A stretch of DNA of 63,544 bases, the filler included, from Reclinomonas americana ATCC 50394 (Eukaryota): NCBI GenBank assembly GCA_048213135.1. It is 11 parts of 11 records of this genome, joined end to end, with 100 filler letters (N's around TTAATTAATTAA, not from the genome) between each part and the next. Parts side by side here need not be neighbours in the genome. Positions count along the whole stretch, not along the records: positions 27,135 to 42,256 come from AFZH01017893.1; 10 more parts are not named here. One strand, written 5' to 3'. Numbering within the stretch: the stretch's first letter is position 1; each line of letters opens with the position of its first letter. Shown here piece by piece: positions 19,574 through 52,935 of this stretch. Under the pieces are notes generated by a model. It worked only from the letters and a program-made list of their open reading frames with translations. It ran no database searches and had not been told where the DNA came from. The position numbers and the translations under genes were made by a program.

Positions 19574-22407
19574 ATGGCAGACGTTGCTGCCAGCGACAAT
19601 GTGGTGGTGATTGCTGTGAGCGTGGTCGTTGGCCTGCTCTTTGGACTGTGGTTCCTCTTTAATCGCTTCCGGTGAGCGCCTTGTTTTTTCTTTGTTTTTG
19701 TGTGTGCAGATGTGCACATTCACACACACTTCGCTCCAACGCAAAACTCACCTTCTCTCTCTCCCATTGTCTTCTCTCTTTCTCCCATGGTGTGTGTGTG
19801 TGTACAGTGGTGGCAGCTCGTCGACAGCAGGCGGCTCTGGCACCAAGCAGGCGAGTTCTGCGCACAGCTCGTTGCCAGCAGATGCGCCCTCATTGCCCGT
19901 GTTGTACGGGACGCAGGTGTGTGTGTGTGCACAACCCTCAGTGTGTATGAGGGGAGAGAGGGAGAGGGAGAGAGGAGAAGAGAGAAAGAGAGAGAGCAAG
20001 AACAGATAGTGCATCTCTGTGACACGATCATCTCCGCTGTGGTGAACGAGCGCCCGTGTTGCCCGTGTTGTGCGGGACGCACGTGCGTGTGTGCACAAGC
20101 CTCAGTGTGTGAGAGAGAGAGAGGGGGGGAGACAGAGTGAGAAGATTAAGCATGAACAGTCAGTGTATCTCTGTCTGTGAAAAGATCATCTCCGCTGTGA
20201 TGAAATGAGCACCCTCGTTGCCCGTGTTGCACGGGACGCAAGTGTGTTTGCATGCGCAAGCTTCAGTATGCATGTGTGTGTGAGAGAGAGAGCAAGTAGA
20301 GAGAGCGCATCTCTGTGTGAGAAGATCATCTCCGCTGTGGTGTGAGTCATGACACGTGTTTTTGCACGCACAGTTCGGCACTGCGCAGCGATTTGCCGAG
20401 GCGCTGGCTCGTGAGGGCCGCAAGAACATGTTTGCGGCGCAGGCGGTGGATCTGGCCGAGTACCCGACCGGCTCGTTGTGTGACGAGAAGCAAGTGGTGC
20501 TGGTGATGGCGTCGTATGGCGAGGGTGAGCCGACGGACAATGCGCGCGACTTTTACTCGTGGCTCTTTAGCGACCAAGTCGGGTCGCTGGCCGGTCTCAA
20601 GTACACGCTCTTCTCGCTCGGTGACTCCACGTACAAGCATTTCCACCAGGTCGGTCGCTTGGTGGATCAGCGCCTGCAGCAGCTTGGCGCGCAGTGCATG
20701 TTTGCGCGTGGCGAAGGCGATGCGCATGTGGGGTGCGTGTGGATTGTCGTCTCTTGTGTCGCGCATCCCCACCTGCTCACTGTCTCTCTCTCTTCTGTAG
20801 GCTGGAGGACGATTTCGTGGAGTGGTGTGCGCGAATGTGGCCTGCGTTGTGCCAGCAGTTTGGCACCACATTCACACCTCCCGACGACTTGTTGCGTCCT
20901 CCTGCTTCTTTTTTGCGCTCGTCTTCGAGAACCGACAAAGAGTTGTGCAGGAAACCACTGTACACGATTCGCGAGCTGGAGGAGGAGAACGCCAATGTGC
21001 GCGTGTTCCCCTTCTCCGAGAGCTTCACCTCCAAGTTCCCGTACTGGGGCCGCGTGTTGGCCAACCGCGAGCTGCTGCACACCACCGACGGGCGGTCGAC
21101 GGTGCACGTGGAGATTGAGTCGCCCGGCGTCAACATGCGTTACCAGGCCGGCGACCACCTCGGTGTGGTGCCGGCCAACGAGGACGAACTGGTTGAGCTG
21201 TATGCGCGTCGTCTGGGCGTGGCCGACAAGCTCGATCGCATCGTCATGGTGGACCGTGTGGAAGGTGTGTGCGCAGGGAAGGGAAAAAGGGATGCACGAG
21301 TTGACGCTCACTCCTTTTTTTCTCTGCCGGCAGAGGACCTCAAGAACCTGTTCCCCGTGCGACGCACGACCTACCGCCAGATTCTCAAGTGGTACCTCGA
21401 TCTCACTGGTGTCGCCAAGAAGGAGCTGCTGAATGTGTTGGCGCACTACACGACGGACGAGCGAGAGAAGACAACGCTGCAGCTGTGGGGCTCGACCACG
21501 GAGGAGGGCAAGGTGAGTGTCCCTTCAAAAGTGCTCTCTCCGCATTTTGTTGCTGACGCAAGGGCGGGCTCAGGCGGCATACGATCATCACGTCAAGCGA
21601 CAGTACAAGATCCTGCTGGAGATTCTGCACGACTTCCCTCACGTGAAGCCGGACCTGGGTCACCTGTTCCAGGTGATGCCGAAGCAGCTGCCGCGCTACT
21701 ACTCGATCGGTTCCGACTACGCGGTGGACACGTGGTCGAACCGCATCCAGATGACGGTGGCCGTGGTGAAGCACGTGTCGCCGACGGGCCGCGTCGCCAA
21801 CGGCGTGACGTCGTCGTTCTTGCAGAGACTGAAGCCGACGGTCGACGAGGTGCCGATCTTTGTGAGGAAGAGCACCTTCCACCTGCCCAAGGATCCGTCG
21901 GTGCCGGTGGTGATGATTGGGCCGGGCACGGGTCTGGCGCCGTTTATGGGATTCCTGGCGCGGAGGCAGCATGATGTTAACAAGGGTGAGGGGGGTAGAG
22001 AGGGGAAGAAAGGGGAAGGGGGGAAGAGAGGGGAAAGGGGGTGAAGGGGGAGGGGGGAGAGAGGGGAGGGGAGAGGGAGGTTGAATTAGGGGGAAGAGAG
22101 GGGAAAGAGGTGAGTGAAAGAGTCCTACAGAGGGGACACACCGAGATGAATGTTGTAGGGGCGCAAAGTCATTTTCCTGCTTTGGTGTCTGTTTGTCTCC
22201 TATTATCGTATTAGTATAGAAGGCATGTATGTGATCGTCGGTAGCTGTTCATTGTTGTGCCTTGTGTCGGAATTTGTTCTCAACATCTACAGCCCTTGAA
22301 CAATGTTAGTTGCAATAGAAACAAGAGACCTGTTGGTGATTACTGGTAGCTGAGCTGAAGGAGAAGAGCGCACAGGAAACTTGCTGGTGAACACTGGTTG
22401 CACTTCG

Positions 22408-25329: not shown

Positions 25330-26531
25330 TCAGTGGTGCCCATTCGTCGCCGCCACCACCGACGAGTCCACCTTGCCGCCCTTGGTGGCACGTCTTGCCT
25401 CGTCCATGGCGCTGCCGCCCGCTGCCACCCACTCGTGGTACTTCTCGTCGGTGCCAAAGATACGATCCCAAATCACAAACACCGACGAGTAGTTGCCGGC
25501 GCAGCGCAGGTGGTGGAAATCGTGGTGCGTCGGGCCGCAGTAGAGCGGGAAGAGGAACTCAAAGTTGATGGGGAACGCGTAGCCGGTGTGGCAGTGAATG
25601 GCCTCCACCTGGCGGAAGATCATCCACACCCAGATGCCGACGAGGTGACCGCCGCCGACAATGACGGGGCCCATGAAGGTGCCGACGCCGAGAATGACAA
25701 ACTCGAGCGGGTGCGCGTACGAGCTGGCCATGCCGATCGGATGGTCGAACTCGTGGTGCATGTAGTGAATGTTCTTGTACGCCTGCCACAAGACAAGGGA
25801 TAAGGGGGATCAGCAACAACATGCAGGAGATACCGCAAATCTTTCTCGACGAAAAGGTGCGCACCCACTCCGTGTGCAGCCACTTGTGTGCAAAGTAGAA
25901 CCAGCAGTCCTCCAGCAAAAAGTAAAACACCACACGCAGCAGCATCTCCGACCACGACGGCAGCGGCATGGCGACCGACACACCGCGCCATTGGAGAGTC
26001 GGATAGGCCAACACCATGAGCGGCGCCGCAATGAACGCATGATTGAAGATTAGCTTCTTCACGCACTTCCACGTCGTCGCCATGTCGACAATGCGATCCT
26101 GCAAAGGCGCACAGGCAAGAAGAGCGGGCGACATGTCAGACACACACAGCACGAGATACGAGACGAGATACGAGAGGAGATGCAGCGTGGACGCACTACA
26201 GACACGCACGCACGCTCACAAACACACGCACGCTCATGCCGACGGCTAGCAGGGGGCGGCAGCAACACACTCATCACTCCGCCATCTCTCCGCGCGCTCT
26301 CACCTTTTGAATCTTGTACTTCATGGCCCACGCCGGCTGCAGCCAGTCGAGCAGGAAGAACGGCAGCGACGCGAAAAAGTAGACCAGCACAAGGAAGCAG
26401 AGCGACACCGGCACCACCAGCTGGAACTCCGTGAATGTGCTGCTCATCCACATCCACCACCGCTCCATCGGCCCATACTCGGTGGGCACCATCGACGCAT
26501 GACCGCCGGTGAAAAGCACGCTCTCGTCCAT
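25330..26531 (-). CDS. Sterol C4-methyl oxidase (ERG25/SMO)-like; copy B
   Basis: Three exons with KYKIQK, PLPSWSE, EDCWFYFAHKWLH, IHYMHHEF, YAHPLEF, HTGYAFP, HHDFHH and GNYSSVFVIWDRIFGTD. Confidence 0.92.
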
Positions 26532-27032: not shown

Positions 27033-28457
27033 TANNNNNNNNNNNNNNNNNNNNNNNNNNNNNNNNNNNNNNNNNNNNTTAATTAATTAANNNNNNNNNN
27101 NNNNNNNNNNNNNNNNNNNNNNNNNNNNNNNNNNACTCACATTGACAGAACGAGAGGAGACATAGAGCGAGGATGCCATGGACAAGTGAGAGAGAGATCG
27201 TCCATCATCGCCATTCATGTTCATTCATTTCGCGATGTGGGGATCACAGATGGAAAGCGCGTTGCAAAAGCCGACGCGAAGTCGACACACGCAGCGTGCG
27301 CTGGCGCAACTGCGCGGTCGACGAGGTGCGTCCTTGTGCTCTCTCTCTCTCTCTCTCCCTCTCCCTCTCCCCTCTCCCCCCTCTCAACTCCCTCCCGACA
27401 GGGTGTGGGCGACGCGGTTCGCTGCGCTTCACTCTGCGCCTGCTGCACGAGTTGCTGCACGATGTGCCGTTCACGCAGTACATGCTGACTGTGCACTATG
27501 CGCTGGGCGAGGAGGAGTGTCCCGACATGAGTGGCTGTCGCGAGGTGCCGGCGCACGTGGAGGTGTCGCGCGGCCTGGTGTCGCAGTTGTCGGTCAAGTG
27601 AGTGCGCCTTCTCTCCTTCTCCTCCCCCCCTCTCTCTCGCTCTGACGCCTCCACCAGAAACGACGACGGCGAAGAAGATGATGAGTTTGGCGACGGCATG
27701 GACGGCGACTTTGTGGAGGACGACGCGATCACGCAAGAATCGGCGGCCGGTGACGATGACGACGACTTGCGGCTGCTGGGCAAGCACATGCGCGATGCCG
27801 AGTGCATGCTGTGCGAAGTGCAGGAGGCCTCGCAGGGTGGCGAGCCGTGGGAGTGTGTGGTGTGTGAGCAGTTGCGTGCGTGCGACGGGGCGAGGCGAAA
27901 GAAAAGTTCCGCGCGACCGTGGGGCTCACGGCGCGCACAGATGCTCGGTCTCTTATCACGCCCTGTGCCTGGGTCGGGCGGCGCTTGAGCGTGCAGGCTC
28001 CATCAGCACGGCACTGATTCCGCGTCGCGTCGAGTGCGTACTGTGCGGGCAGGAGGAGGAGTGGGGTCGGTGGGTGGCCAATCGGGAGCGTCTGCTCAAG
28101 CGCCGACGAATCGGTGGCCGCTCGTCGCGGCCGCCATCGGCGTGCAGTGATTCGGTCGGGCCACTGCGCGCCCTCAGTCAGGACAACTCGCAGTCGCGGG
28201 TGCGACCGACCCAGGTGAAGGCGACCGCGAAGCCGCAGCCACCACCACCACCACCACCACCTCCGCGGCGTCGATCACCCATGTCGCTGCTCGACGACGA
28301 CGACGACGGTGGGGAGGCGGTGGAGGAGCAAAAGAGGCCCGCGGCGACGAGTAGCTCCTTTGCCGCGCTCCTCTCTCTTGACGACGACGGTGACGAGGAG
28401 GACATGGATGTGCCGCTGGCGGTGCGACTGGCGCGACGTGCGGCTGGCGCTCGGTGA
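26697..28457 (+). CDS. SLX1: Structure-specific endonuclease subunit SLX1 (GIY-YIG plus C-terminal RING-like zinc finger), spanning a gap
   Basis: FVYVL...[23 protein letters not shown]...RPW..V..V.GFPS..AALQ at the N-terminus. C-terminal CxxC..C..HxxCL...LIP...C.LC....W. Confidence 0.92.
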
Positions 28458-28495
28458 AGAAACGAAACAGGGTTTTACACGAGCATTGCGAGATC

Positions 28496-28514
28496 TCATC
28501 GGAGGAACTGGCGG

Positions 28515-28546
<32 letters not shown>

Positions 28547-30232
28547 CTCCAGGTGTGCGTCGTTCTGGTCGCCGGAGGCGCTGCTGCTGCCGTTGCCGAG
28601 GCCGTTGACCGATGACGCGGAGGCGAGGGAGGGCGCCGGATGTAGGTTTCGCGGCACGGGCGGCCGCCATTCCAGCCCGCTGGTGGCGAGCTCGCTCTTG
28701 ATGGGGCACAGCCAGGACCAGGTGTTCATGCCGAGTGTCTCCTTCAGGTTGGCCTTGACGCCGTTGGAGTAGCCGCCGTGAAAGTCGGAGCCCGTGAGAT
28801 CGCCCAAGGTCGATCGGTTGCTCTGGCGGGTTGTGAGTGAAAGAAATAAAGGATGAGAGGTGACGAGCAATGTGCGCGCGCAACAGCCAGCATCTGGAAG
28901 TGGAAAAACGCAAAGGGACCCAGTGCCAGTGCGAACATTGAGACCAGACTGCACAGCACGCGCGCAAGTGAGTGATGGCGAGGGAGAGTGAGCGAGAGCG
29001 AGAGCGAAAGAGAGAGTGACGCAACGCAAAGACGACAATAATCTGTACATTGTGCCGCGGCGTGCTGCGGTCATCGGAACCAGACTGCAGAAACGGCGAT
29101 ACCAAAGTGAGCGGGAGAGGTCTTGTCCACGCACGCAGAAGAAACCCGACTCACCAGGTATTTGATCACGCCAATCAAGTCGGGGAACATGGTCGCAAAG
29201 ACCCACACGGCGGTCAAGGCCGAGTACTGCAACGGGCTGGGGTTGGCGAAGGGAGAGAGGACACAAGCAGGCAGTGACACAGGCGAACACACCATGAGAA
29301 ACAGGAAAAAGAACTTGTGGTTTTGCAGTCCGACACAGTTGACGACCCAGGCTGTGTGTGCGAGGAGGAGTGAGCGAGCCAGGCCGGCATTCAGCAGTCA
29401 TTTTTTCCCATGCGCAACGACAGTGATGGTCCATCTGCAACACGAGGTGAGAAAGCGACTCGCTCCCCCACGAAAAAAACACAGCGAGGAGCGCAACTCG
29501 GAGCACACATCGATTGCACTCGGAGCAGTGGTGCGCCCGGAACGGTTTCGGCCGGTCACATCGTTTGCACTGCCGCAGGAGCACGTAAGACACCAACGTC
29601 AGTGGCAACGACAACGCATTCTCGCGCACGCAACCCATGGACCGCGCACTTCGCCACTGTGAGCACACGGATAGATGAGGCGAAGAAATCATATCGAAAA
29701 CCACACACGCACACATACGCACCCTTCCTCTGCGTCGGCCTCTGGGGCCCACTCGTGAGGCACTGAGACACGAGCGTGGTCAGTGCAAGAGAGAGACAAG
29801 CAAGGCGGACATCAGAGAGGGAGAGACAGACCGCCACCAGGATCCGTCCACACAGTCTGCACGTAGCTAAAGAGTCCGAGGAACGCCAGCACACCGTAGA
29901 TGGCGATGCGTGCGATCGCCCAGCCCTGTGTGCACAACAAAGAGTCAGAATGTGAGGAGGGAGAGAGAGAGTGTGTGAGCGTGTTCACCGGTGCATCATT
30001 CTCCACATAGGCCGTGTACGCCGACAGGTAGCAGTAGACGTAGGTGGCGTAGCTGCGCGATCAGTGAGCATTCTCTTTGTGTGTGCGAGTGTGAGTGTTC
30101 TCCTCGGTAAGACACCACCAACCCGTAGATGCCCGACACCAGTGGCACCATCACAAACGACCATATGGGACGGTATCTGAGGCCGCACCACCAGCGCGGA
30201 CGCACGGTTCGCGGGCCGTCCTCGCGTCGCAT
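28496..30232 (-). CDS. DHHC protein S-palmitoyltransferase
   Basis: TM segments, TDPG, CKRC..KPFRAHHCSECNR, MDHHC-PWVVNCVG..NHKFF.LF, and C-terminal G...NL.ETLG....W..P. Confidence 0.92.
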
Positions 30233-30359
30233 TCCTTCAACACACGAAGAGTCCACGAAGACGTCAGTCTGTCAATCAATGCGTGACGGGACAGCTGAAG
30301 TCTCCCTCCTCCCTCTCTCTCTCTCCTCTGATCCAGATCATAGTTTACTCAAAACACTC

Positions 30360-33300
30360 TCAATCATCCAGCTGCATTTGCCGACTGGCAGCGCTCAACC
30401 GCTGCAGCACATACTCGTGGACGCCCCTCGCTTGGTACACAAGGCAGCGACTGAAACGAGACACGAAAGGACCCAGAAGCCGCTCGACGTACCCCGACGA
30501 CCGATCACCGGCCACAGTCGGCGCGCTGCGACTACCGCGACGGCCCGTGTCATCGGCATCCCCGGCAGCCGCCGTCTCCGCAGCAATAGCGGCGGCCGCA
30601 GAGGCGCGACGGGCACTTACTGGCGCACCACCGCGGTCGCTGTCAGCGTCAACTCGCCACACGCGGACGCAGCTGTCATCGCAACAGCTGACGATCCGCG
30701 TACCTTCCGCACACACGGCCACTCCCGTAACTCGGCCGTCGTGCCCGACGAGCTGACCGCGTGGTACGAGCTCCATCACGCCATCGAAGTGCTGCTCGTC
30801 GGCGTCGATATCCTGCCACATGCGTACTGCACGGTCGTTGCCGCCCGTGACAATGCAGCGTGTGCCGTCGGCCAATGTCGCAAATTCCACGCATCGAATG
30901 GCTTCACGATGCACATGATGCGCCAGCCACCGTCGGCGTATCGTCGCTCCATCTGCGCCAGTCATTGTCCACTCGGACAAGTCGCCATTCGAGTGGCCAC
31001 ACAGCAGACGCTCCTCATCGTCTCGAGAGAGCACCAAACTCAGCACCCGGTCTTCCACTTGCTGCGCCGACACTTGCTCCCTGCGTGCCAACGACCACAC
31101 TCTCAACATCAAGTCGTCGCCGCTGCTGATCGCCGAGTCGCCACGTTGCGACACACACAGTGCGCGCACCGGTGTGTTACACATGCGAGTTGCGCCGCCC
31201 TCCTGGACTTCGATGCAGTGGTCTCCGAGCGCTGCAAGCTCAATAGTACCTGCAGCATCGATGGGGACATCAATATCGACTGCAAGTCGGCCGTCTGGAA
31301 TCTCGCCAACAGATATCGTGCCGTCCAGGCTGCCGCACACCACCAGTCGTCGTCCATCTGCGGCTTGGACGGCATGCGCACAAATGACAGCGTCAGTGGG
31401 ACCGACAAAGCGGCAGCGCTCAGTGCCGTCCTCCACCAGCCACACTCGCACTGTCCGATCACTGCTGCCGGAGACCACGAGTGCACCGTCGAAAGCGAAA
31501 GACAACGAGTTGATTTCGCCCGTGTGACCAGCCAGCTGACGGAGCAGGTCACCGTCATGTAGCGTCCAGATGGCCACTGTATTGCTGTTGACGACACCGG
31601 CCACATGCTGCAACGGTCCTTCGCCAGACATCGTCAGCGCGACGGGTACGGCATTGGTGTCCAGACGACGGCGACGGCGGCGAAGGTGTTCCGCTGTCGA
31701 CCACCGGCGCACGCTGTTATCTGTACTGCCGCCACTCACAATGAACTCGCCATCGTAGGTGGTGGTCAGTGAGGTGACTGGTCCTAGGTGCCCGTCAAGA
31801 GTACACAGCAAATCCCAGTTCTCGGTCCACACGCGAATCTTGTTGTCGACGCAACCGCCACTGAGGAGAAGGCCACCATCTCGAGTATAGGTCAGTGCCC
31901 GCACCGAACCTTGCGCCGCGTCGAACTTGGAAACCACGCCTCTTGCTGCCAGGCTAATGCGCAGTATCTCGCCGTTCTCGAAGCCGACAGCAAACACATC
32001 TGGATCTGGTCCCGGCGACAGGGCGATGCAATGTGCCGAACTCCGACGCTCGACAGGCGGCGGCAAACAGAGCAGTTCCATGGCCATGCCATCGCTGACT
32101 TGCCACACGCGAACATATCCGTTCTCGTAACCCGCGGCAACGTATCGACCCCTCGGCCACATGGCCACACACAGTACACAACCAAAGGAGTGCGGATCCT
32201 GCGATCTACGCATCTCTCTCGATTCGCACGGCAGCTTGTCAAGCGCCCAGATTCGCACAGATCCGTCGTCGCTGCCACTCACGAGAGTTGTGTCGTTCGC
32301 CGATAGCGCGATGCATCGCACTGCGCCTGTATGTCCCCTCAACAAGAACCATTCAGCGTGCGTTCCGGCCGCCGCAGTCACGTCTCTCTGGTCTGCTGTC
32401 GTACAAAAATAGCCACGGATCGTCTTATCGTTACAACCGACAATTACTCGCTGACTGTCGCCAGTGATGGCGATGGCATGAACGGCATTTCCACAGGGAA
32501 TAGCGTCAAGCTCAGCAGCATCCGCGGCCAGCCACAATCGGGCGGTGTGATCAAAGCCACCCGCCGCGACAATCCGACCATCGAAAGACGCGGCAACTGA
32601 TGTCACTCCTCGCTGGTGACCCTCGATTGGCATCGGCTGCAACTGTGCTCTATTGAAGTCACAGTAGTTCAGGTCGCTCTCGTCAATGTACGCATGGCGA
32701 ATGTTGACGCGCGCAAGGTCGCCCCGCTGCAGCCGAGTGCGATGCATGACGACATGACTGAGGTCGGCGCCACGGAGCCGCACTTCCTCCAGATCGCGCG
32801 CGCTGAATGAAATGCCGGCCGCACACAAAACGCCAGCAGCGCTAGCCGCCGCACAGACTATCGGTTCGGCATCACTCGACCTGGAGAGCTCGACAATCCG
32901 CCACACTTTCTCCTGCACGGACACATCGCGACGAATGCGATCGGCGATGAACATAATAATGGAGTCGAGTGACTGTTCAGTGCACATGTGAGCGACCATA
33001 ACATACAACAGGAACAAAAATGCGTGCGCCAAAACGCTGTTCACCTCGTCAGAGCGCGTCAGCAACCTGTCACTGAGGATGCGCTTTGGTTTTTGCAACA
33101 AATGCTGAATTACACAGTCCAGGTCTGTCGACTGGGACATCATGTCGACCACCGCGTCAACCTCCTGGAGCCACATGTCGGCAGCAAAGTACTCCAAAAA
33201 GCTCTTGTGCGTGAACTCGACCACGCACGAATCTAGATTGTACCGAGACACCCACTTCAGGAGCGCCTATTATGTTTGTTCGTCAGCAGGTGCATGAAGA

Positions 33301-35674
33301 CGCATGCTGCAATCGATAAGGTCTCACCGCACGGATGACAACGTCAGTCTTCGGTTCCTTTTGCCCGACCGTGAACCGTTCTCTCCACAGCTGATCCGCG
33401 TACTCATCATTCATCCACTTCACCAACTACACATGCAAGAAAGTAGTCATTAGACAGCGGGCAGTACACCGAAACACTTAAAACTTGACCACACAACATA
33501 AGGGTCCATTGTCGTGACACGGCGACACATGAGTTCACCAGCGAGCGAACGGCAGAATTCTCGAACTTGCAGGTCAAACTCCCCAGCACCACCTTCTACA
33601 AATTGCTGCAAACAAGAGAGATAAGTGCAGAAGAGATGACACAATACGACTATTGCAGGCACTCACCGCTGCAATGTCCGTCTCAAAGTGCTCGACTTCG
33701 TGAATAATACGCCGATCCATGAAGACACGATACAGATCGGCGCGAGTGACTCTTCGCCGCCAGTCCTCACGCGCCAGATCATCGCTGACGCGCACAATCA
33801 TTTGAAGCATGATAGGCTGCGGACCGGCAGTAATCGAGTGATTATGAAGGCAGTAACAGAGCCACCACCAATTAAGGGATTTCCATACCGATTTCGCCAG
33901 ATCAGCCAAGCCGGGAATGCGATTGATCTGCTGCTGACGACGATCGTGCATCAGCCGGTCTTCGTGGTGCTGCTCGCAATACCTGGTCCAATACGACAAC
34001 TATTGGCCACCACTTCCTTTCAACAAGAAGTCGACAGCACAGCAACAACGCAACTCGAGCAGAAACCGTCCAACGTCTGTAAAGGAGAATGGACGAAGAG
34101 CACAAGTGAGAAGAAGTGTCTTGTCTCGGGCCGCGGCGTCAATCTCAGTTGCTGGAGTCAACGCCACATCCAAAGGATCAAACCGGCTTGTCCACTGCCG
34201 ACCAAGACGACTGATGAATTCACGGCGGACAGAGACGATGAGCCGCAAATTTGGGAAGTTCTGGATCGCACGCACAGATGAGTAAGAATCCTGCGCCGGC
34301 AGGTCAGAATGTCGGCGTCGCTCTGAACGCACCTCCAAATTGTGGAAACGATAAAGGTTGTCCGGCACCGGGCACTCGTCGAAGCCGTCCAGAATCAGCA
34401 CAATCCGCTGACACTCGGACAACTACGCTCGGAACCGATTCACAGCTGTTAGAAATATCGATTCTCGCTCACGTGCATTGAGCAGCGCAAGCACGCACAT
34501 CTTCGCACTCGAGCCTCAGTCGCCGATCCACATCGCGAGTCGCACACTCCAGCATATGCGGCACCAAGCGACCTCGTGTGTGAAGCACATCTTGCGGAAG
34601 GACACACAGTCGCTCTCGCAAGACCAACATGTTGGTGTTCTTTTCCGGATCGGTAAAGCGCTTGTACATCTTGCTCAAGAGCGTGGATTTGCCAGCACCC
34701 GACCAGCCCACCACCACAGCCACCTGTGTGTCGAAATGCGCATCATGAGTAACACCACACACAAGAACACATATAAACTTTGCGGAGTACGCACGCGATC
34801 AGTTGGCCTCTGACCACTGTCTTCGACAAATCGCGAAAGGAGCTCATCTGCAAGCGTGTATTCGGCGTCAAGTTTATCAGCCTCGTCAACCGATTCGTTG
34901 GCGAATACGTCGATCTGTGTCACACACGACGACGCAAGCAGCATGGTTCAGCACAAACGCGCAGCATGCCTCCGCGCACACAGCGATACGTGTACACCGA
35001 ACCAGTGTTTCCTGCTCTTGCTGCACGCTGGCCACTTCCTGTTCGGCATTCACGCGAAGGCGGACTTGCACTGCGCGAATGGCAGCAAGCTTCTCTGCCA
35101 AAGATACCACCGAGGCCACGAGCCACACATTGCCGGCAGCCTGCACAGCATGACCACGGCAGGTGAGAAGAAGATGCTTGCCCAACGCTGCAGCACAACG
35201 TGCGTATGTCACGCACCAACAGGTCTTGAATCTCAAACAGCTGGTCCGGCTTCATGTCAGCATCAAAGCCGTCCACGATCAGCACAATGCATCGAGTGAA
35301 GCGCGCATTTCCTCGCACTCCCGCCAAAGTGGGACACAGTTCTTGCTTCAGCAGCTTCTGCCCTCGCGGCAAGAGACTGTTGATGCAGTCTAACACATAC
35401 AAAAGCAGCTGGTGTCGCTCGCCGAGGTTTCTGATGTGCGACAGTCGCTCTCGAAAAACAATTGTGTCGACGCTCTCGAATGGCGGCTTCCTTCCTTGCC
35501 GTCGACGCTCGCGAGAGCTCAGCTGCTGAAACTCAATGCTCTCCGTCACGAGCTTTAAGTACAAATGGTCCAGCAATAGAGATTCACCACCATCGGGCCA
35601 GGGCGGGGACACAATCAGCTGTGGCACGCACAGCCAGGCAATGAAGTGAGCTCGAGATATGCGCACCTCCAGAC

Positions 35675-35719
<45 letters not shown>

Positions 35720-36100
35720 CGCACGCACACACACAAAATCGCTCACTACACTCTGTCACACAAACACACCCTGTCGGCTATCGTTGCGTCAGCAGCAGGG
35801 ACTGTGCTGGCTTGTACCAGGCGAGTGCGAAGTGCATCTACTGCGGCAGCAAGAGGAGTGCCCAGATCCTACACGAGAAAAAAGAAGTGAGTCACAAAAT
35901 GCATGCAATTTCACGAGGCTGGAATGCCAAGACAAAACACGTACCAGGGGTTGTCGCTGCTCTGGCGTCAGGAAAGCGAACTGCCTTTTGCGTACCGTGG
36001 TCAGCTGCCTGGAAAATGACGAGCCACCACCGCAAAGGCGTACGCGTGTTCGAAAATGTGAGCGAGTCGACATGCACATTTTCCCTGTCGGCTGCTGCGC
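30360..36100 (-). CDS. NLR-like STAND module B: pseudo-NACHT + NACHT + pentapeptide repeats + WD40
   Basis: Walker A VVVGWSGAGKST (~34685-34717), Walker B IVLILDGFDE, LIVSVR, P.ML, FTHKSFLEYFAA and pentapeptide DLEEVRLRGADLS. Many GH..V...A.S.DG...SG..D..VR.W repeats lie in a single ~2.9 kb exon ending at 30360. The 5' boundary is uncertain and the module could be fused to module A. Confidence 0.82.
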
Positions 36101-36324
36101 GTGTTGCAGCGCGTAAGTGGCAGGCACAGAGTGCACAAGAAAATCTAGAAACAGCACCTTAAAGAAATGTGCACTGTAGGTGCGCTCACGACGACAACAA
36201 AAAAGTTGTGGAAGCGGACAAGATCGAGTTCGGTTCCGCACTGTCGTGTTTGTCGCGTCTGACAACGGCGTGCACTTCACTAATGTCAGGCTCATTGCAC
36301 TCGGCCGAGTCCCCGAGAGGGCCC

Positions 36325-39300
36325 TCAGTCCAAAGCAATGTCCCGCGAGTCGGGCGCGGCGACGCCAATCACGCGAAGCAAAGTTCCCGACGCCACACAC
36401 CACACGCGGATCGTCGAGTCGTCACCAGCGGAGACCAGTCGCTGGTGCCCAGCGCTGTCTTCGACAAATGCAAGACCGCAGAGGGTCGCCGCATGACCGC
36501 GGACAGCTGTTGATGCTCCACTCTCCACATCGATGAGGCGGACAACACCAAAGCCGGCGGCAACGGCAATCACCACTCGTCCTTCCGCCGACGAAAAGGC
36601 GGCAGCCAGCGACGTGACCCCGATCCCGGCACACGCGTTCGGATCCACGAGTGGTCCAACTCGTCGACTGAGTGCACCATTCTCACGACTCCAAACACAC
36701 ACCATACCGTCGTTGCCACCGCTAAAGACAAGGGTCGAGTCCGGGGAAAAAGGCCACGGTACTGACTGGTAGTGAGTGACACCTGTGTTCAGCTTCCAGC
36801 GAGACGCTGGTACCAGTTGAGCCATTCGAGAGTAACCACACCATCACACGCCTGTCGGCACCTCCACTGACAACAGAAAAACCATCAACAGATATGGCAA
36901 CGGCTGTCACGGGAAGCATGTGACTACCGAGCAATTGAGACTCGGCGGCACCCGGGGCGACGTTCCACAATCGTACAGTGCAGTCGTCGGAGCCGCTTAC
37001 AAGCCGGCTCCCGTCGGCAGTGAATGCCAACGCACGCACACGGCGGTCGTGACCAACAAGAACACGCTCATAATGACCATCGTCAACTACCGAGTAGACG
37101 TGCAACTCGATCCGAGAATCTCGAACCACAGCAAGAAAAGTGTGGGATGACGTCGACGCGCAGGCAACAGCATGTGGGAAAGGCGAACAACGGTCGATGG
37201 GCAACAAGTACCGTCTAATGCGACCATCCGCCAGCGACCACAAGCACACACCGTTTTGAAAATCGGCGCTGCAGACGAGATCGGCGGCTCCACTGCCGGT
37301 CATCGTCAACATCTTGCCGAGTTTTGGCTGCGATCTGCGCATATCCGACGCCAGCAACAGAGGCCACAACCGTACGCTCGGGTTGCCACCGGTTCCAGTA
37401 GCAAACCAGCGACTGCGGGGTGACACAGCAATGGCGGTGACAGGGCCCTCGTGGCCACTGAATACAGACAACAGGCGACCCGACTGCAAGCACCAGATGC
37501 GCACGACTCCGTCACAGCGCCCGCCGCTAATGACGTGGCGGTCGTCTGGCGTGATGGCAACCGAACATGCGCCTCGGTGGTGGGCTTCAATGACATGTTC
37601 CACGCTCAGTCGGTGCACGCTCCAGATGCGCAGTGCACCGCCGTCATCTGCACTAGCTGCAATGAAATGCGACTGGCACAGCGCCACAGCCGACACAGGA
37701 TATGCGTGGCCTTCCAGCACCGCTGGCTCAGAGAAGCTGTCCATGCGATGCAACCGTACAGCACTGTTGGCGCACCCACTAATGACAAGTGGAAGGCGGT
37801 TGCCACCAAACACAATCGAGACTGCAGTGATCACGGCGGAGTCGTCGCGAAACATCGCCCGTGGCTCATGCCGCGTAGCAGCTGAAACCGTCGACCACAA
37901 CTGCAGCATACCGTCCGTGAAGCCAACTACAACGAAGAAACCGTCGGCCGTTGCACTCACACATGTGATAGATGCGTTGCAATGCTGGTCTGCTGAAAGG
38001 AGTCGGCAAGGCTTCGTGAATTGTGGCAGATCACTATCAGCTGCGTTCGCAGTACAATTCTGAACAGAATACACCGCCACGCGGCAGCTTCTCGTGTCAC
38101 CAGCTAAAGCCGCCAGGCCAGTCACAAGTCTAATGTCCCCGCGATCAACACAAAAGGCAGCGGCAGTCACGAATGGGTCCGCCAACTCGACACGCGCGAT
38201 TTCATCACGTGTGATGACTGACCAGACGCGCATCTCCTTGTCTCGCCGAAAATATAGATCACCCAAATGACCACAACAACTGAGAAGCGTGTTGTCTCCA
38301 AACGCTAGAGCCGTAACTGCTGACACGTGTCCGCGCATCGGCTCGGCCGGCAGGACGCAATCGGTGAGATTGCACCCTGAGAGGTTGGCCTCACGACAGA
38401 ACGCCTGTGACAGATTGACTGCCCGCAGGTCGGCTCGTTGTAACTGCGTCCGATGCAACACTGCGTCCCGCATGTCAGCGCCGCAAATACGGACTCCTCG
38501 AAGGTCGCGACCGGAGAACGCCACTTGCGCCACGCTGAGTATCGTGGCCGCATTGGCAGCCGCAACAACAACACAAGGCTCAGGCTCCACATCTTGGACA
38601 GCTCTCGACAGCAATATCACACGCCAGAGGCGCTCCTGCAGTGCGCTGGATGCGCGCACAGAATCAGCAATGTACGTCACCAGGGATGGGTGTTGTTGAA
38701 TCATGTTGGACTTGGTGAGAACGCTTCGCCGCACACGTTCTACGGTGATATCCTCGGCGTGCTCGAGCTGAAACACATCACAGGCGACGAAATGCTCCAG
38801 GAACGACGCATGGCAGAACTTCCACCAACGCTCGCAGAATTGTAGCAATGGACAGCAGTTGCGAATGGCCAGCTGCTCCCTCGCATCCGAAAAGAACTCG
38901 CGCCTCAGACTCGCCTCGTCAATGTTGTCACTCGAGCAGCGTACTTCAGTCAGGCTCGCTCGAAACATGGCACGTGCAAGGCGGACGAGGAACTCGTGAC
39001 ATTGCTCCACAGATGGCACGTCAGCCGCAGCTGCAGCTACAGCTGTGTACTGGCGACGGGCGTGCGAAATCCACTCTTCCACACAACGGTCGTAGATGTC
39101 GCGCGGCAACAACTGGCATCCACGTTTTGGCAAGTGCGGCAGAATATCGACGGCCATGCCGAAAAGCAATGGAGTCGACGACAACGCATCGATGCGGTCA
39201 CTTTCCTGCAGCGCCTTTCGGTAATTCTCCGTCAGACGCCATGGCGAGCCAGCGGGAAATGAGTCTCGCACCACGTGCACATACTGCTCCAGAAACATGT

Positions 39301-40626
39301 CAATTTGTTGCTTGCCGAGCGGCAGCAGTCGGCACTCGGTCAACTCCCCCTCTTGTAACGCGGCTGTCCTGTCGAGAGGAGCGAAAAATCGAGGGTAGTC
39401 TGTGCCACCGGTTCCCAGCCTGGCTGCATAGTCCGAGCGACAAGTCATAATGACCTTGATATCGGCGAATCGGTGCAGCTGTGCGTGGGGAGGGAAACCA
39501 GGTGAGCGATCTAGAACTACAGTGTTCTCGACTCACAATCGGCGGCTTCTTACTTTGTTGGAAACAAACAGGTTAACCGAGAGACCACGCTCGTCGTATC
39601 CGTCAACAAGGAGGAGAACTGGAATATCGCGCAGTCGGCGGGCAACGGCGTCTGGCTCTGCCGCCTCCCGCGTTGACGGCATCCGCTCAGCCACTGCTTC
39701 CTCCAGAAGCCGTCGCTCCAGCATCTCCGGGCGTATGTGCGTCAATTGTACCAGCAGCGGTAGTCGAGAAGTAGCGTCACCTGTCCATCGCTCACCGACA
39801 CTCTCTGCCACCTGCAATAGCGCAGTTGACTTTCCAGAACCGCTGTCACCGAGGAGGAGCAGCACTTGCTTGTCATCGCAGGCCAGAAAGCGGTCGACTT
39901 CATCGATAAAACGGCAGTGTACTTCCTCTGACGGCACGTCGCACATAAGTGGAACGTGCACCGAGTGCCGGACGTACGCAGCCGTCGGCGACTTGGTATT
40001 CCACGATTCGCGTATGAAGTCAACCTCGCACTCCACCAGCTCATTTAACTGATCGTGCACTGTAAGTGTGCCTGCGGTGAGTAAGTCGTCAACGATACAC
40101 GAGAGCATAAATATCCACGCAACAGAGTGCTTCGCTCTCCAACCTGGCCAAGTACTTGTCAACTGGCATTGAAAGCCGCTGAAGCCACCGACACAACTTC
40201 CCAATTCGGCTCTTGCGTGGATCGCCGCCAATGTATCTTCGCACTTCGAGTGCCGACGCCATGTGAATGCCTTTGTCGGGGTGAGCAAACTTGTTTCGAA
40301 AATCTCGAAGTTTCTTCACCGCCTTGAGCTGCACATCGCAGGGTAAGTGCCGAAAACGTTAACGTAGCGACTGGTATCCACGGCGAATCGCTAACGCACC
40401 TCGAGAGCGTCAGTGAGTAGGAACGCGTCAGTTCCGTCACTTGCTCGCAGTCCTCCATAAAGTAGAATGGAAGACAAGGCAGTCAGGTCAAACCCCGAAC
40501 ACGGCGGTGCACTCGTCCTATCAGCGTTGAACGCTGTGCTCCACTCTATGACGTGCACGTACTGCTTTGCATCCAGCTTCACGACGCCGTCTCGGCCACG
40601 TGGCCTGAATCTGCACATACAAACAT

Positions 40627-40715
<89 letters not shown>

Positions 40716-41292
40716 ATCAACAATTGATCATGACGCAGCGTGTACCAAGTGCATGGGACTGTAACTTTTCTGGAATCTTGCCCTTTGGACGCCACGCTTC
40801 AACGACGTCCATATCAGGGTGTTCCGTGCAGAACTCGGGAAGTCGCTGTTGCAGGCGGCTGGCAAGGGCTTCAGTGGCGATCTCCATGGCCACAAGAAGC
40901 CGCTGATAATGCAGTCGCCTGCGAAACACGACAATCATCAAGCGCAGAAGTGATACACCGGCACATGTGCGCGTACGTACCCTCCTCCATGCAAATCCAA
41001 CAAGTCCACCGTCAACACCAACTCATCCGGGCCCACAGGAACCACCTGCATCTGCTCGAGAGTCTGATCCCTTGCAGTGGCAAACACAAAGGCTTGCTTC
41101 TCGCTTTGCACTCGCATCCGGTCAGGAGCAATAGGCAACAACAGCTCAGCCTCGAGCAAGTGCGCTGCCTTCTCCAGCAACTCGCCGACCAACATTTCTC
41201 GCGTGGCATTCTCCACTGTCACGCTGACACCCTCGTCAGAGTCCTCCAGTTCGAACCGAATAGGGAACTGGCGCGAGAAGTGAGAAACACGT

Positions 41293-41325
<33 letters not shown>

Positions 41326-41350
41326 GGCGGACACCACACGCACGCACCAT
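36325..41350 (-). CDS. NLR-like STAND module A: N-terminal domain + HEPN + NACHT + pentapeptide repeats + WD40, with one frameshift near the 3' end
   Basis: An ATG micro-exon at 41348-41350 splices to FPIRFE. HEPN-like YQRLL..A..AL / FDLTALSSILL / LRDFRNKFAH (RNKFAH at 40281-40298). Walker A LLLLGDSGSGKST (~39827-39850), Walker B LLLVDGYDE, KVIMTCRSDY, TPLLF, FCHASFLEHF, pentapeptide DLRGVRICGADMR, then WD40 repeats. A +1 frameshift lies at 36747-36751. Confidence 0.85.
40618..40713. repeat. (CATA)n/(CA)n microsatellite in an intron of the HEPN region
   Basis: Perfect CA dinucleotide run preceded by CATA units. Confidence 0.95.
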
Positions 41351-41514
41351 CTTGTCAGACCGTCGTTCTTGTCAGAGAGAGTGCGATGGGACAGGACTTG
41401 ACAGGACCTTGTTGCTCACGCGCTGTGAGCTCCTTCCTCTCCCTCTCTCTCTCTCTTTCTCTCTCTGCCTCTCTACCTCCCTCTCTCTCTCTTTGCGGAT
41501 CCACCAAAAAAAGA

Positions 41515-42137
41515 ATGACGACAATGCGCGGGCAGTCGTGGATTGTCGCACTGCTGCTGGTGCTTGTGCTGCTGCTGTCACTCGCACAACTGCAGGGATG
41601 CACAGGTGGCGCAGTGTCATCGGTGCGTGAGCTTGTGAAGAACGAAAAAAGTGAGAGTGTGCGCGCGTGTGCAGAGAAGGCGGCAATTGCGGTTTGCGCG
41701 CACGCACAGACACCCCGCCTGCTGTCTCCTCTCTCTCTCTGTGCGTGAACACCATCACCTCGGGGAGTCTCTTTGTCTCTCTCTGTGTATGTGCGTGCAT
41801 GGCGGCAGTTGTCTGACACTCTTTGTGCGCACTCGCACACGTGTACTCGTCCCTCTCAGTCCGACGACAACAATGACGACGACAACAGCAGTCACCACGC
41901 ACACCACAGCGACAACAATGACAATGCTCATAGTCATCATCATCATCATCATCATCAGTCATCGGTTTGCCTTCTCTACGTACACGTGTATATATGACTT
42001 GTCCTCAGTTGGGTGGGTCTGTCTCTCTCCAGCAGCAGCAGCAGCAGCAGCGAGTGGCCACGCAGTCGGACTCGTACTACGTGGTGGACTATGAAGATGT
42101 TGCGCTGTGCAATGACTTGTCGGAAAAATGCGCAGTG
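41515..42137 (+). CDS. Putative secreted protein with Asp/Asn/His-rich segment; truncated by gap
   Basis: Signal-peptide-like MTTMRGQSWIVALLLVLVLLLSLAQLQG. Later candidate exons read SDDNNDDDNSSHHAHH..HHHHHHHQSS and QQQQRVATQSDSYYVVDYEDVALC. Confidence 0.45.
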
Positions 42138-42155
42138 CCTCTCATCACTCTCTCC

Positions 42156-42252
<97 letters not shown>

Positions 42253-42356
42253 CTCTNNNNNNNNNNNNNNNNNNNNNNNNNNNNNNNNNNNNNNNNNNNN
42301 TTAATTAATTAANNNNNNNNNNNNNNNNNNNNNNNNNNNNNNNNNNNNNNNNNNNN

Positions 42357-45983: not shown

Positions 45984-46789
45984 GTGAGTCTCTTGTATGT
46001 GTGCATTTGATGCATGATTTCTCCTCTCTGCTCTCTCTCTTTCTCTCTCCCTGTGTGCTTTCGTGCTTCTCAGCGTGTCTGCTTCTCCGCGCCTCTTTCA
46101 GGCTCATGGAGGCGTCTCTCCTTCTCCTCTCTGCTCTCCCTTTCTCTCTCTCTCTCTCTCTCTGCGTCTTGGTCTCTCTCAGTGCCTGTCTGCCTCGCCC
46201 CGTGCCTCACTCAGACTCATGGAGGCATCTCTCCTTCTCTTCTCCTCCTCTTCTCTCTCTCTCTCTCTGTCTCTGTCTCTGCATGGGTGTCTCTGTGCTT
46301 GTTTGTATATCTGCCTCGCTCAACACTTCTCTCTCTTCCCTCCCCCCTTTTCTCTCTCTCTCTCGCAANNNNNNNNNNNNNNNNNNNNNNNNNNNNNNNN
46401 NNNNNNNNNNNNTTAATTAATTAANNNNNNNNNNNNNNNNNNNNNNNNNNNNNNNNNNNNNNNNNNNNGAAGGGGGAAGAGAAGGGGGAAGAGAAGGGGG
46501 AAGAGAGAGACAAAAAGGGAGGTAGAGGGGAAAAGAGGGAAGAGCAAGGGGGAAGAAAAGGGATAAGAGAAGGGATAAGAGAAGGGGGAAGAGAAAGGGG
46601 GAAGAGAAAGGGAGAAGAGAAGGAGGAAGAGCAAGGGGGAAGAGAGAGACAAAAGCGAGGCAGAGGGGAGAGGGGAGAGAGAGTGGGAGAGAAGGAATGG
46701 AGGGAGAGGCAGAGAGACAGAAAGAGAGAAAGGAGAGAGAAAATGAGAGAAATTGGAGAAAGAGTCCAACAGAGAAGGGGACGAAAGTG

Positions 46790-49700
46790 AAGAGAGAGAA
46801 AAACGAAACTTGAAGCGCGGAGACGGAGTGGCGATCACGCTGCCGCTGCAAGACGTGTCGACAATGACAAAAGGCGCGACGAAGGAATTGCCGAGATTTG
46901 ACAACTCGGTGCCTGTCAATTTCAGAATCTCTATCGTGCGACCCGATACGAGCTCCGCGCTGACAGTCGTAAAATCGCCTGCAAACACGCAACGAATAAG
47001 CGAAATAGGACACTTAGAATATCTCGCGCACGTGCGTGGAGCTTACCAGCCGATAATACTCCCGCCAGCATGTAGAACAGCGAGTCGGTTGTGTACCGCG
47101 CACACAGATAGAATCTGTGTGTCATCTTCCATGAGCAACACACAACGACAAAAACCATAAGAGTGAGGCGCAACTTTCCGGCAGACGGCGACCCGCTCAG
47201 AGTGAGTACATGAGTCGCCCCGGGGGCCGTCGACACTGGCGTCAGGGTGGGATTCGCAAGGAATGTTCCCGACTCGCATGTGGTGGAGGAGGCGATGGCG
47301 TATCGCGCTCCGTTGGTGGTGTCGCTCATGTCGGGCATCGAGCAGCCGTTGATGTTGAGAGTGATGGTGCCGACTTGCGAGGCGCGGAAGGTGTTTGGCG
47401 AAATGTACATGACGGCGGGGCCCACCTGCGGAAAAGGGGGAAGGGGAGATGAGGGAAGGGACGGGAAAGGGGAAGATGAGGGAAAGGGGAAAGGGGATAT
47501 GAGGGAATGGCAAAAGGGGGAGATAAGGGGAAGGGGGAGATGAGGGAAAGGGGGAGATGAGGAAAAGGGGGAGAAAGGGGGAAGGGGGGATATAGGACAC
47601 AAGGGAAAGGGGGGCAGGGAAAGGAGGAGATGGGGGAAAGGCGAAAAGGGGAGATAAGGGAAAGGGTTAGAGGGAAAGGGGTAGAAAACGGAAAGGGGGC
47701 AGGGGGCAGGGGAGAGATGAGGGAAGGGGGAGATGAGGGAAGGGGGAGATAAGGGAAAGGGGGAAGAAGAAGGAGGATGTGGAAAAGTGGGAGATGAGAG
47801 AAGGGAGGAGATGAGGAAAGGTAGAAAGGGGAAGAGGAAGAGGGAAAGGGGGTGATGAGGGAAAAGGAAAGAAGGAGATACGGGAAAGGGAAAGGAGGAG
47901 ATGAGAGAAAGGAGGAGATGAGGGAAAGGGGACGAGGGAAGGGGGACATATGGGAGAGGGAGAAAAGGAAAGGGAGAAAAAGGAAAGGGGACAGAGAAGA
48001 GAACGAGAAGTAAGAGGAGTAAACAGCATGGGGAGAGAAGAGAAGAGGAGAAGGACGAAAATAAGGAGAGGGAGGGAAGTAAGAGGGATGACAACAACGG
48101 CGTGGAGTGGGGCTAGGGGAGCTTGAGCAGGAGAGGAAAGAAGCAAAACAAAAGAGAAGGAACAGTGAACCGTTCTCTGTGTGTGACGTACCGAGACGAA
48201 TCGCACACCGAATTGAGTTGAGTCGTACATCAGCAGCGCTCCCGTGGCATTGTGTCGTGAAATGGACTGCATTAAGGGTCAGACGTGCACTACATACGCG
48301 TGGATGCTCGGAGACACACACACCGAAATGGACTGGAAGCGCGCAACCGAGTACGCTCCATCGGTGTATGCGCTGTTGCCGAACGAGCCAATGTACGACA
48401 TGTAACCCGAATGATCGGTGGAGATTACTTGGGCAAATGAGTTTGTCTGTGCAACGAGTCGTTGAGCGTAAGGACAATGTAGTGGAGTGCAAATGGGAGT
48501 GCGCACCTCATCGCCAATCACCAAGTCACCGGTGGTCATCAATGCAAGACCTCGACCTGCATGCAGTGAGGTGAAAAGAGGAAGGAGCATGTACATCACT
48601 GGATCTTTCACGAAACTCGCAGTGAACAGATCGAGACCCAAATCGCAGGTAGTGGGCGGGACACACGGGTTGAATGTGCTCGGGGTGCTCGATTGACCGG
48701 CGAGCACCGTCCAGGCGTTGGAGATGTATTTGAGTAATCTCCCGGTGGCTGAGGTGGGAGACAAGGGACAAGGGTGGGAAAGGAGAAGGAGGTGGAAACA
48801 GGGAGTGAAAAATGAGGCAATGAGTGAACGGCGAGAAAAGCGGAGGGAGATAGAAAGTGGACAGTTGCAGCAGAAGAGCGATGCCAGGAGATTGACAGGG
48901 CGAAGGAGAGAAAAGAGAGGGAAAAGAGAAGTTACATGAAGAGACGAGGATGGGGAAGTGTTAGAGAAAGAGAAGTGAGAACTGAGACGGAGAGGAAGAG
49001 AACCAGACGGATAAGTGAAGAAAGAGGAAGAGAAGGGAGAAGAGGGAAGGGGAGAAGGAGAAAGACGAGGGAGGGTCAAGAAGGGAGAGAGAGAAGGAGA
49101 GTAAGAAGAAGAATGGTAGTTGAGGACTGAGACTGCCGGAAAGAGAAGAAGACGGGAAGTGAGAGAGCGAGCGGCAACAGAGAAGGAGTTGAGGACTGAA
49201 ACTGAATGGAGCACAGGAATACTGAAAGAGAGAAAAAGTAAGAAGAAGAGAGTGAGGGCCCAACAAGAAGTGAGAAAGATACGAAGAAACGCTGGAGAGA
49301 AATGGTGAACACACAGAGAGAAGGAGAAGCACAATTAAGTGAAAGTAGAGAAGGACAGGTACAGCCACAGTACAAACAGGAAGTCCCAGCACACTCACAT
49401 AGGTCGACCGTGTACAGCGCGTATCCGGCAGACACCTTGCGAACCACCAATTCTGTGTCACGAGTGTGAGAGACGCACACGCAAGGCAGAATCACGAATT
49501 TGAACGTACGCAACGAGAGAACTCGGGTGTCGCTGCACCAGGCGGCGTCGGCAGCGTTTCCACCTGGCCGTCGGTGTTGGACCAGTCGGCGAAGCGAATC
49601 ACCGACGTTGAGCCTTGCCTGTCGTGAATGTAGAGCGTACTCGAGGCCTCGTTGACGGCAATTTGCCTAATGTCCGTAAACGAGGATTGGGTGAGTCGAC

Positions 49701-51842: not shown

Positions 51843-51900
<58 letters not shown>

Positions 51901-52899: not shown

Positions 52900-52935
<36 letters not shown>

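Follow-up and report, generated by a model that had tools for sequence, protein, structure and literature searches.

Bacterial NACHT proteins carry N-terminal effectors that include HEPN and sensor repeats that include pentapeptide repeats, and it has been argued that NACHT genes moved from bacteria to eukaryotes repeatedly, as far as the accessible part of that study goes (Kibby et al., 10.1101/2022.07.19.500537). Fusions of HEPN with NACHT are described for the DZIP3/hRUL138-like and CXorf38-like HEPN families of animals and Capsaspora, together with bacterial proteins that combine an N-terminal HEPN with STAND (Anantharaman et al., 2013, PMC3710099, in excerpt), and the available portion of a survey covers prokaryotic STANDs with WD40 sensors (PMC13581612). 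Receptors with the order NACHT, pentapeptide and WD40 have been catalogued mainly in bacteria and are largely untested; a full-text search of the literature for NACHT, "pentapeptide repeat" and WD40 returned nothing on eukaryotic members. Here we describe two such receptors, A and B, found in spliced nuclear genes of the poorly sampled protist Reclinomonas americana ATCC 50394 (assembly GCA_048213135.1), on the minus strand between positions 41350 and 30360 of the window (i.e., the whole stretch of 63,544 nucleotides that was analyzed). The window consists of 11 parts joined with 100 filler letters (N's around a stretch of sequence) at each join, and parts that stand side by side need not be neighbors in the genome; both modules, however, fall within positions 27,135-42,256, which come from a single record, AFZH01017893.1. 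We consider A and B to be separate neighboring genes, each encoding a STAND/NLR-type receptor, that derive from an old tandem duplication, and assign this reading a probability of roughly 60%.

Two modules are indeed present, well beyond what chance would give. The minus strand from 41350 to 30360 holds two colinear modules of NACHT, pentapeptide repeats and a WD40 region of ~14 blades, at 41350-36325 (A) and 36079-30360 (B). Pfam was run on the stop-free open reading frame (ORF) pieces of the window, unspliced. In A, the piece at 39533-40315 matched NACHT (7.2e-7; 29.6 bits against a cut-off of 26.7), that at 36722-39532 matched both Pentapeptide (1.3e-9) and WD40 (1.2e-39), and that at 36325-36843 matched WD40 again (8.3e-10). 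In B, the piece at 30360-33266 matched WD40 at 2.6e-66, and small pieces at 34000-34798 gave generic P-loop family matches and a weak NACHT match (0.0067); the B exon piece compared with NACHT (PF05729) reached 16.7 bits, under the 26.7 cut-off, in a domain that is split over 7 exons and of which one piece was scored. On sub-pieces the pentapeptide matches were 1e-13 in A and 3.2e-8 in B, and in each module the pentapeptide repeats follow the helical domain associated with NACHT and precede a double WD40 propeller.

The motifs agree with the domain matches. Walker A and Walker B are intact in both modules (GDSGSGKST and LLLVDGYDE in A; GWSGAGKST and LILDGFDE in B), and both conform to the patterns of the NACHT clade (i.e., GxxxxGK[ST] and hhhhD[GA]xDE). 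A sensor-1 arginine is found in A (VIMTCRSDY) as well as in B (LIVSVRREF), and so is the FxHxSF motif, as FCHASFLEHF at 38818-38789 and FTHKSFLEYF at 33215-33186, respectively. The two long ORFs align with 27% identity (BLASTP, E 3e-41), and the spliced models, residues 345-1478 of A with 282-1479 of B, with 25% identity over 1275 columns (E 5.7e-54). A reading of the DNA made earlier from the sequence only (hereafter the sequence-only reading) had described two diverged NACHT-FxHxSF-pentapeptide-WD40 modules in the same orientation, and the Pfam, BLASTP and motif results bear this out, with the minus strand as the coding strand.

The locus is eukaryotic and spliced, because the two in-frame stops, at 39535-39533 and near 34000, each fall within a short GT...AG interval with a length divisible by three (75 and 72 nucleotides, nt, respectively). 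All three minus-strand frames were read, and an intron was placed where the frame changed or a stop intervened, provided that GT...AG borders were present and that the spliced product remained colinear with the other module; donor and acceptor matrices were then built from the inferred introns, the best exon chains were searched and splice scores were computed by leave-one-out. The 18 GT-AG introns inferred in this way in A and B are 61-88 nt long in all but two cases (16/18), the two exceptions, of 155 and 199 nt, contain microsatellites, and the donors are mostly GTGCGT, GTACGT or GTGAGT. Their median leave-one-out score is 11.8, and of the 3307 GT..AG pairs in the region that span 45-100 nt, only 57 score 12 or more. 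Neither spliced model contains an internal stop. Gene finding by codon usage gave a coding signal too weak to tell the frames apart.

As modeled, gene A (36325-41350; ~1500 amino acids, aa) runs from an ATG at 41350 to a TGA at 36327-36325 in 7 exons, with introns placed by their splice scores at 41347-41268, 40980-40919, 40765-40611, 40399-40329, 40244-40163 and 39553-39479. The fifth of these is ambiguous: the splice scores favor 40244-40163 over the alternative 40123-40060, and the choice alters ~40 residues after the motif RNKFAH discussed below. The sixth (75 nt, GTAAGA...CACAG) holds the in-frame TGA at 39535-39533 and has a leave-one-out sum of 11.7. Gene B (30360-36079; ~1575 aa) runs from an ATG at 36079 to a stop at 30362-30360 in 13 exons, and its introns were placed at 35944-35869, 35817-35619, 35216-35141, 35002-34915, 34794-34724, 34498-34423, 34332-34261, 34054-33983, 33888-33817, 33666-33606, 33494-33427 and 33327-33267. 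The sequence-only reading had seen module A stop abruptly at 36325 with no gap before B. In the models, A ends 24 aa past its last RVW, and a spacer of ~246 nt (36080-36324) separates its TGA from the favored ATG of B, with an alternative ATG of weaker context at 36296.

Each receptor is predicted to consist of an N-terminal module, a NACHT ATPase, a helical linker, a short pentapeptide beta-helix and ~14 WD40 blades. In A, exon 2 (40981-41267) encodes an N-terminal domain of 95 aa with the predicted order strand-strand-helix-strand-strand-strand (single-sequence AlphaFold; predicted local distance difference test score, pLDDT, 52), for which no family was found in Pfam or NCBIfam at E<=10 and no fold match by Foldseek against the PDB at E<=0.001. 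A ubiquitin-like beta-grasp would be compatible with this order of strands and helix; given the pLDDT of 52 and the lack of a Foldseek match, it is not claimed. Exons 3-5 follow, and exon 6 (39554-40162) then encodes the N-terminal half of NACHT, to which the Pfam match of 7.2e-7 belongs, with Walker A at 39850-39824 and Walker B at 39616-39590. The C-terminal half of NACHT (sensor-1 at 39454-39428), the helical linker with FCHASFLEHF and the pentapeptide repeats (~38446-38357) were assigned to 38339-39478 by Pfam and by a phmmer match to the eukaryotic relative described below. The WD40 region of ~670 aa (36328-38338), which by its length would form ~14 blades, rests on the two WD40 matches of A and is colinear with that of B.

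In B, the live NACHT domain is encoded by exons 6-12 with their introns (33267-34723) and was recognized by the matches to P-loop families and by its colinearity with A; Walker A is at 34708-34682, Walker B at 34398-34375 and sensor-1 at 34242-34216. The first 876 aa of the last exon (30639-33266) comprise FTHKSFLEYF, the helical linker, the pentapeptide beta-helix (~32810-32715) and WD40, as judged by Pfam and AlphaFold. The AlphaFold model of this exon, made with an alignment of 26 rows, has a mean pLDDT of 69.8, with 78-95 over the linker, the pentapeptide part and most blades, and shows helices, then a short beta-helix (pLDDT 88-95), then ~53 strands, which would correspond to ~13-14 WD40 blades. 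The alanine- and arginine-rich last 92 aa (30363-30638), previously taken for a cap-like tail, are instead predicted to be disordered, with pLDDT of 24-30 and no stable secondary structure in the model.

We noticed that exon 3 of B (35217-35618) is an internal partial duplication of the same gene's NACHT domain, as judged from its sequence, with a destroyed P-loop. It has no Pfam match. By BLASTP, 33 of 131 residues are identical to those of the NACHT of B from the P-loop to Walker B (E 3e-6); in this alignment WPDGGESLLLDHLY pairs with WSGAGKSTLLSKMY and, in a second stretch, IVLIVDGFDADMKPDQLF pairs with IVLILDGFDECPVPDNLY. PPWPDGGESL (35606-35577) stands in the place of the P-loop, and a Walker-B-like IVLIVDGFDA (35288-35259) is kept. 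The "pseudo-NTPase" that had been noted at the start of one module is thus a dead-P-loop copy of B's own P-loop-to-Walker-B stretch, and the suggestion of three STAND-type domains at the locus holds only insofar as B contains this dead partial copy of the N-terminal half of its own NACHT. No recognizable effector was found in B.

Among longer proteins, the best full-coverage matches of A and B share 22-28% identity with them and are mostly actinobacterial proteins with TIR, NACHT, pentapeptide repeats and WD40, together with metallophosphoesterase forms. A near-length search with the NACHT C-terminal, linker and pentapeptide part of A found no close relatives and only 3 weak pentapeptide matches, and an index search for similar stretches of DNA likewise yielded none. 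The best non-WD40 match of A, and also of B, is a eukaryotic protein of 1702 aa with TIR_2, a NACHT-like domain, pentapeptide repeats and WD40 (EukProt record tig00020710_g13286.t1, hereafter P0016), which scored 100 bits (4e-31) against A by phmmer; the next, metagenome-derived P0019, scored 44 bits. The style of its identifier suggests that P0016 may belong to the Cyanophora paradoxa gene set. A full-text search of the literature for NACHT and Cyanophora returned nothing relevant. P0016 resembles A and B in architecture from NACHT onward and differs from them in its N-terminal TIR, in its identity of 28% to A over 436 columns and in its long branch.

A NACHT phylogeny, which the sequence-only reading had proposed as a check, was computed as a quick IQ-TREE run on 41 NACHT-to-pentapeptide regions (517 columns), i.e., those of A, B, P0016 and 38 other rows, mainly bacterial or metagenomic. 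A and B did not fall inside a bacterial clade; they formed their own clade with P0016, apart from the 38 other rows and subject to the caveat of long branches, with the topology (P0016,(A,B)) at SH-aLRT 100 and the A+B node at 82. As far as sequence can tell, A and B are old paralogs within a small eukaryotic offshoot of a family whose members are mainly bacterial. In the genomic loci of 80 bacterial relatives, a second module within 10 kb was found once. This locus, L045:8759-17655 of Actinosynnema pretiosum, has two adjacent same-strand ORFs of 1176 and 1777 aa, 33 nt apart, each with a NACHT-linker module.

Several observations weigh against our reading of the locus, and many of them concern the N-terminus of A, where one module had been said to begin with HEPN. 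What stands of that claim is one motif, RNKFAH (40281-40298), a candidate for the HEPN catalytic motif. It is the sole Rx4-6H motif in residues 1-300 of A, and its N after the R fits the rule, given in an excerpt of the HEPN survey, that a polar residue (N, D or H) follows the R (PMC3710099). The motif lies in the helical-looking exons 3-5 (40245-40918, with introns 3 and 4 between them), which by position before NACHT form a candidate effector slot, the same place that TIR_2, Metallophos or PNP_UDP occupies in the precomputed Pfam lists of relatives. The nearest named Atlas clusters to the N-terminus of A are Csm6_HEPN, Cas02710 and MtlR (0.84-0.86), all of the HEPN superfamily, with Atlas scores below 0.9 counting as leads only; the Atlas search with exon 4 of A was uninformative. 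On the other side, the strict motif R[NDH]x3H occurs in 6.3% of 20,000 shuffles and so is weak evidence for HEPN, and its weakness on its own is also apparent from exon 3 of B. At model residues 118-131 this dead NACHT copy holds RERLSH and RNLGERH, two motifs of the Rx4-6H type that are probably there by chance. Searched by single exons, for a domain that spans three, the N-terminus of A matched no profile of Pfam or NCBIfam at E<=10 apart from DUF6548 at 0.19. PADLOC reported nothing specific for the first ~300 residues, which also have no sequence match in the PDB, and the upstream motif Ex3[KR], the typical setting of a conserved acidic residue in many but not all HEPN families, is absent from model residues 97-260. 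Searched by phmmer against 1.84 billion representative proteins, the motif-bearing ORF of 89 aa (40089-40358) had a single match, P0120, which was rejected as a HEPN relative: this database entry of 1300 aa is a translated repeat in ~8 copies (Pfam DUF4462, 5.8e-39), and the match is a repeat artifact. It should be noted that P0120 reached E 1.5e-8 against the 89-aa query purely by summed repeats, a trap for sensitive searches. An HEPN domain at the N-terminus of A is plausible but unproven, and we rate it at slightly less than an even chance.

The gene models themselves were derived from open frames together with splice matrices computed from these very introns, and three introns of B (34054-33983, 33888-33817 and 33327-33267) score below 0 in leave-one-out, so that those borders are less sure. 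The boundary between A and B could be drawn differently, as one giant gene in which an intron of ~300-800 nt removes the last 24 codons and the stop of A and joins it to B, giving a tandem NLR of ~3000 aa in which two NACHT domains are live and one is dead. Between 36421 and 35945, one minus-strand frame (f0) does run past the stop of A without interruption, and 118 GT..AG joins would link A to B with no stop in between; the best of them, 36400->36009, scores 6.6 + 6.4 = 13.0, which is the level of a typical intron, keeps the frame and rebuilds the Trp codon of RVW. Exons 2 and 3 of B have no usable ATG of their own, so exon 3 must be joined by splicing to an exon upstream. B has such an exon, however: exon 1 has a start codon in favorable context (ATG at 36079, with A at -3) and is followed by a canonical 76-nt intron scoring 13.5 in leave-one-out against the median of 11.8. 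The join 36400->36009 would be 392 nt long, compared to 61-88 nt in 16 of the 18 introns, all of the best 15 joins are at least 278 nt, and the only long inferred introns hold microsatellites. Single-module relatives of ~1650-2100 aa are among the closest full-length matches in the search of longer proteins, and the sole two-module bacterial locus has two ORFs, not one. Nor is tight same-strand packing a sign of fusion; it is the local norm, since an unrelated DHHC gene starts ~128 nt after the stop of B. Given its own stop in A, its own ATG in B and the intron length required, a single protein of ~3000 aa is disfavored and in our view very unlikely, and of the earlier "pair or one giant fusion" it is the two adjacent same-strand genes that remain. 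We are fairly confident that A and B are two separate genes, whose tight spacing would reflect compact gene packing.

Whether both genes work is a further question, because A as assembled is frameshifted and may be broken. A run of five T's (36747-36751) shifts the frame by 1 nt within a WD40 repeat; were there only four, the repeat would read through (..VAF / SPDSTLVFSGGNDGMVCVW), and as written the frame meets a stop at 36724-36722. The shift reflects either a wrong homopolymer length in the assembly or a break of very recent date. Were it real, A would be a recent pseudogene with its second propeller truncated at 36722, and B the sole working copy. The position of the shift in the middle of a WD40 repeat speaks for such a lesion, and no plausible intron repairs it: a 61-nt GT..AG intron at 36782-36722 was rejected, because it scores 2.3 / -3.1 and would remove the core of the blade. 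There is also no independent sign of indel errors in the assembly, since those suspected in the neighboring FA_hydroxylase and CPR genes were rejected when both sites proved to be ordinary introns of ~62-66 nt. The lesion is, however, the single one in ~1500 codons, and the 131 codons past it are free of stops and retain a WD40 match (8.3e-10). Assemblies often misjudge the length of homopolymers, and the 20 N runs of the window were counted as a sign of an imperfect record, in a window whose joins carry N filler. A decayed A is a possibility that we regard as unlikely. In addition, the tree behind the proposed old duplication has to be read with care, because the branches of A, B and P0016 are long (2.5-3.7) and their grouping could be long-branch attraction. 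Alternatively, A and B could form a functional sensor/executor pair in which B, having no effector, acts as the sensor and passes its signal to the effector-bearing A in mixed oligomers of their NACHT domains, their linkage being kept by selection. Consistent with this idea are their adjacency and shared orientation despite 25% identity, i.e., after long divergence, the presence of a candidate effector in A only, with a dead nucleotide-binding piece in B that could dock onto another NACHT, and the single bacterial locus with two modules. Against it, 79 of the 80 loci of bacterial relatives have a single module within 10 kb, a near-length search found no relative of the locus with which linkage could be compared, the P-loops are intact in both genes with no obvious division of labor, and the genes lie head-to-tail, in contrast to the head-to-head order of plant pairs. 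We find such a pair distinctly improbable, and judge no more favorably the broader proposal of a eukaryotic two-part NLR (a dead-plus-live sensor B and an HEPN RNase executor A in a mixed oligomer) or of one tandem NLR of ~3000 aa made through the 392-nt intron. If either were true, it would be an arrangement undescribed for protist NACHT proteins, and would mean that a deep lineage of eukaryotes adopted and elaborated the bacterial design of effector, NACHT, pentapeptide and WD40.

If A and B are two separate receptor genes, as we propose, their mode of action may be sketched by analogy with Apaf-1, bacterial NACHT proteins and Avs. The WD40 propellers would bind a ligand, upon which NACHT would exchange its nucleotide and oligomerize, bringing the N-terminal modules together. 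In A, the N-terminal region of ~300 aa may hold a metal-independent RNase of the HEPN type with RNKFAH as its putative catalytic site. Its activity would be turned on by clustering, and the resulting cleavage of RNA would lead to growth arrest or cell death. The N-terminus of B, with its dead partial copy of the nucleotide-binding half, would more likely serve as a regulator or scaffold than as an executor.

The remainder of the window has a G+C content of ~57% when taken with the locus, abundant (CA)n and (GA)n microsatellites, and ORFs with ordinary eukaryotic domains, i.e., SRAP, two FA_hydroxylase, flavodoxin/FAD reductase, SLX1_C, DHHC and TLDc. Among 5.8 billion proteins, the best match of the reductase is a EukProt transcriptome record with 50% identity, and this low value indicates that the host is a poorly sampled eukaryote. 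The reductase gene (20353-22041) lies between the two genes of the fatty-acid-hydroxylase family, which are ~10 kb apart on opposite strands (14408-15404, plus; 25333-25809, minus), and the three could be a small lipid-oxidation gene neighborhood. The stop of B and the likely ATG (~30231) of the DHHC palmitoyltransferase gene are on the same strand and ~128 nt apart (30231-30362), a spacing that suggests either a very compact genome or polycistronic transcription. A low-complexity tract of ~7 kb at 46400-53500 is purine-rich on the plus strand, with a GC skew of 0.33-0.42 and an AT skew of up to 0.43, and consists of degenerate GA-rich tandem arrays that include ~189 copies of GAGT at 52105-52855; the domain search of the window ORFs gave no match in it. 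A tandem repeat with a period of 150 nt (2.6 copies, 72% matches) lies at 53898-54293. The window also contains 20 runs of 44 N in ten pairs, with 12 bases inside each pair (e.g., 7323-7422 and 42257-42356), often within microsatellites.

A and B add a data point on the spread and diversification of NLR-like receptors outside animals, plants and fungi: they group with one other eukaryotic protein and not with the bacterial ones, and A has a candidate RNase module, whereas B holds a dead partial copy of its ATPase. They are also a concrete pair for asking whether tandem NLR-like genes cooperate. Plants have paired NLRs, i.e., sensor/helper pairs such as RGA4/RGA5 and RRS1/RPS4, whose genes are arranged head-to-head. 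Like these, A and B are two adjacent NLR-type genes, one of them without an obvious executor domain. The plant pairs are, however, of the NB-ARC type, whereas A and B are of the NACHT type, no integrated decoy was recognized in A or B, and their head-to-tail order differs from the head-to-head order with a shared promoter of plant-type pairing.

The locus does not represent a new principle, since published work, including the source excerpts cited here, already describes HEPN fused to NACHT, NLR genes duplicated in tandem and NACHT genes that passed from bacteria to eukaryotes. The HEPN-NACHT proteins, as described in the accessible text, place an N-terminal Rx4-6H RNase module before a STAND ATPase (PMC3710099), which is the logic proposed for A; their sensors are LRR, ankyrin or TPR, in contrast to the pentapeptide repeats and WD40 of A, for which HEPN membership is only a candidate assignment. 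The closest described systems are the bacterial NACHT (bNACHT) proteins, such as the TIR proteins of Nonomuraea and Streptomyces and the metallophosphoesterase forms (10.1101/2022.07.19.500537, in part). These differ from A and B, which are eukaryotic and spliced, share 22-28% identity with them and stand apart in the tree; A has neither TIR nor phosphoesterase but a module that is possibly HEPN, and B has a dead NACHT half. Nevertheless, domain order and size are the same, the shared layout comprising an N-terminal effector slot, NACHT, a helical linker, a short pentapeptide stretch and ~14 WD40 repeats, and the NACHT-to-pentapeptide part of A and B aligns as a whole with that of relatives such as P0019 (44 bits).

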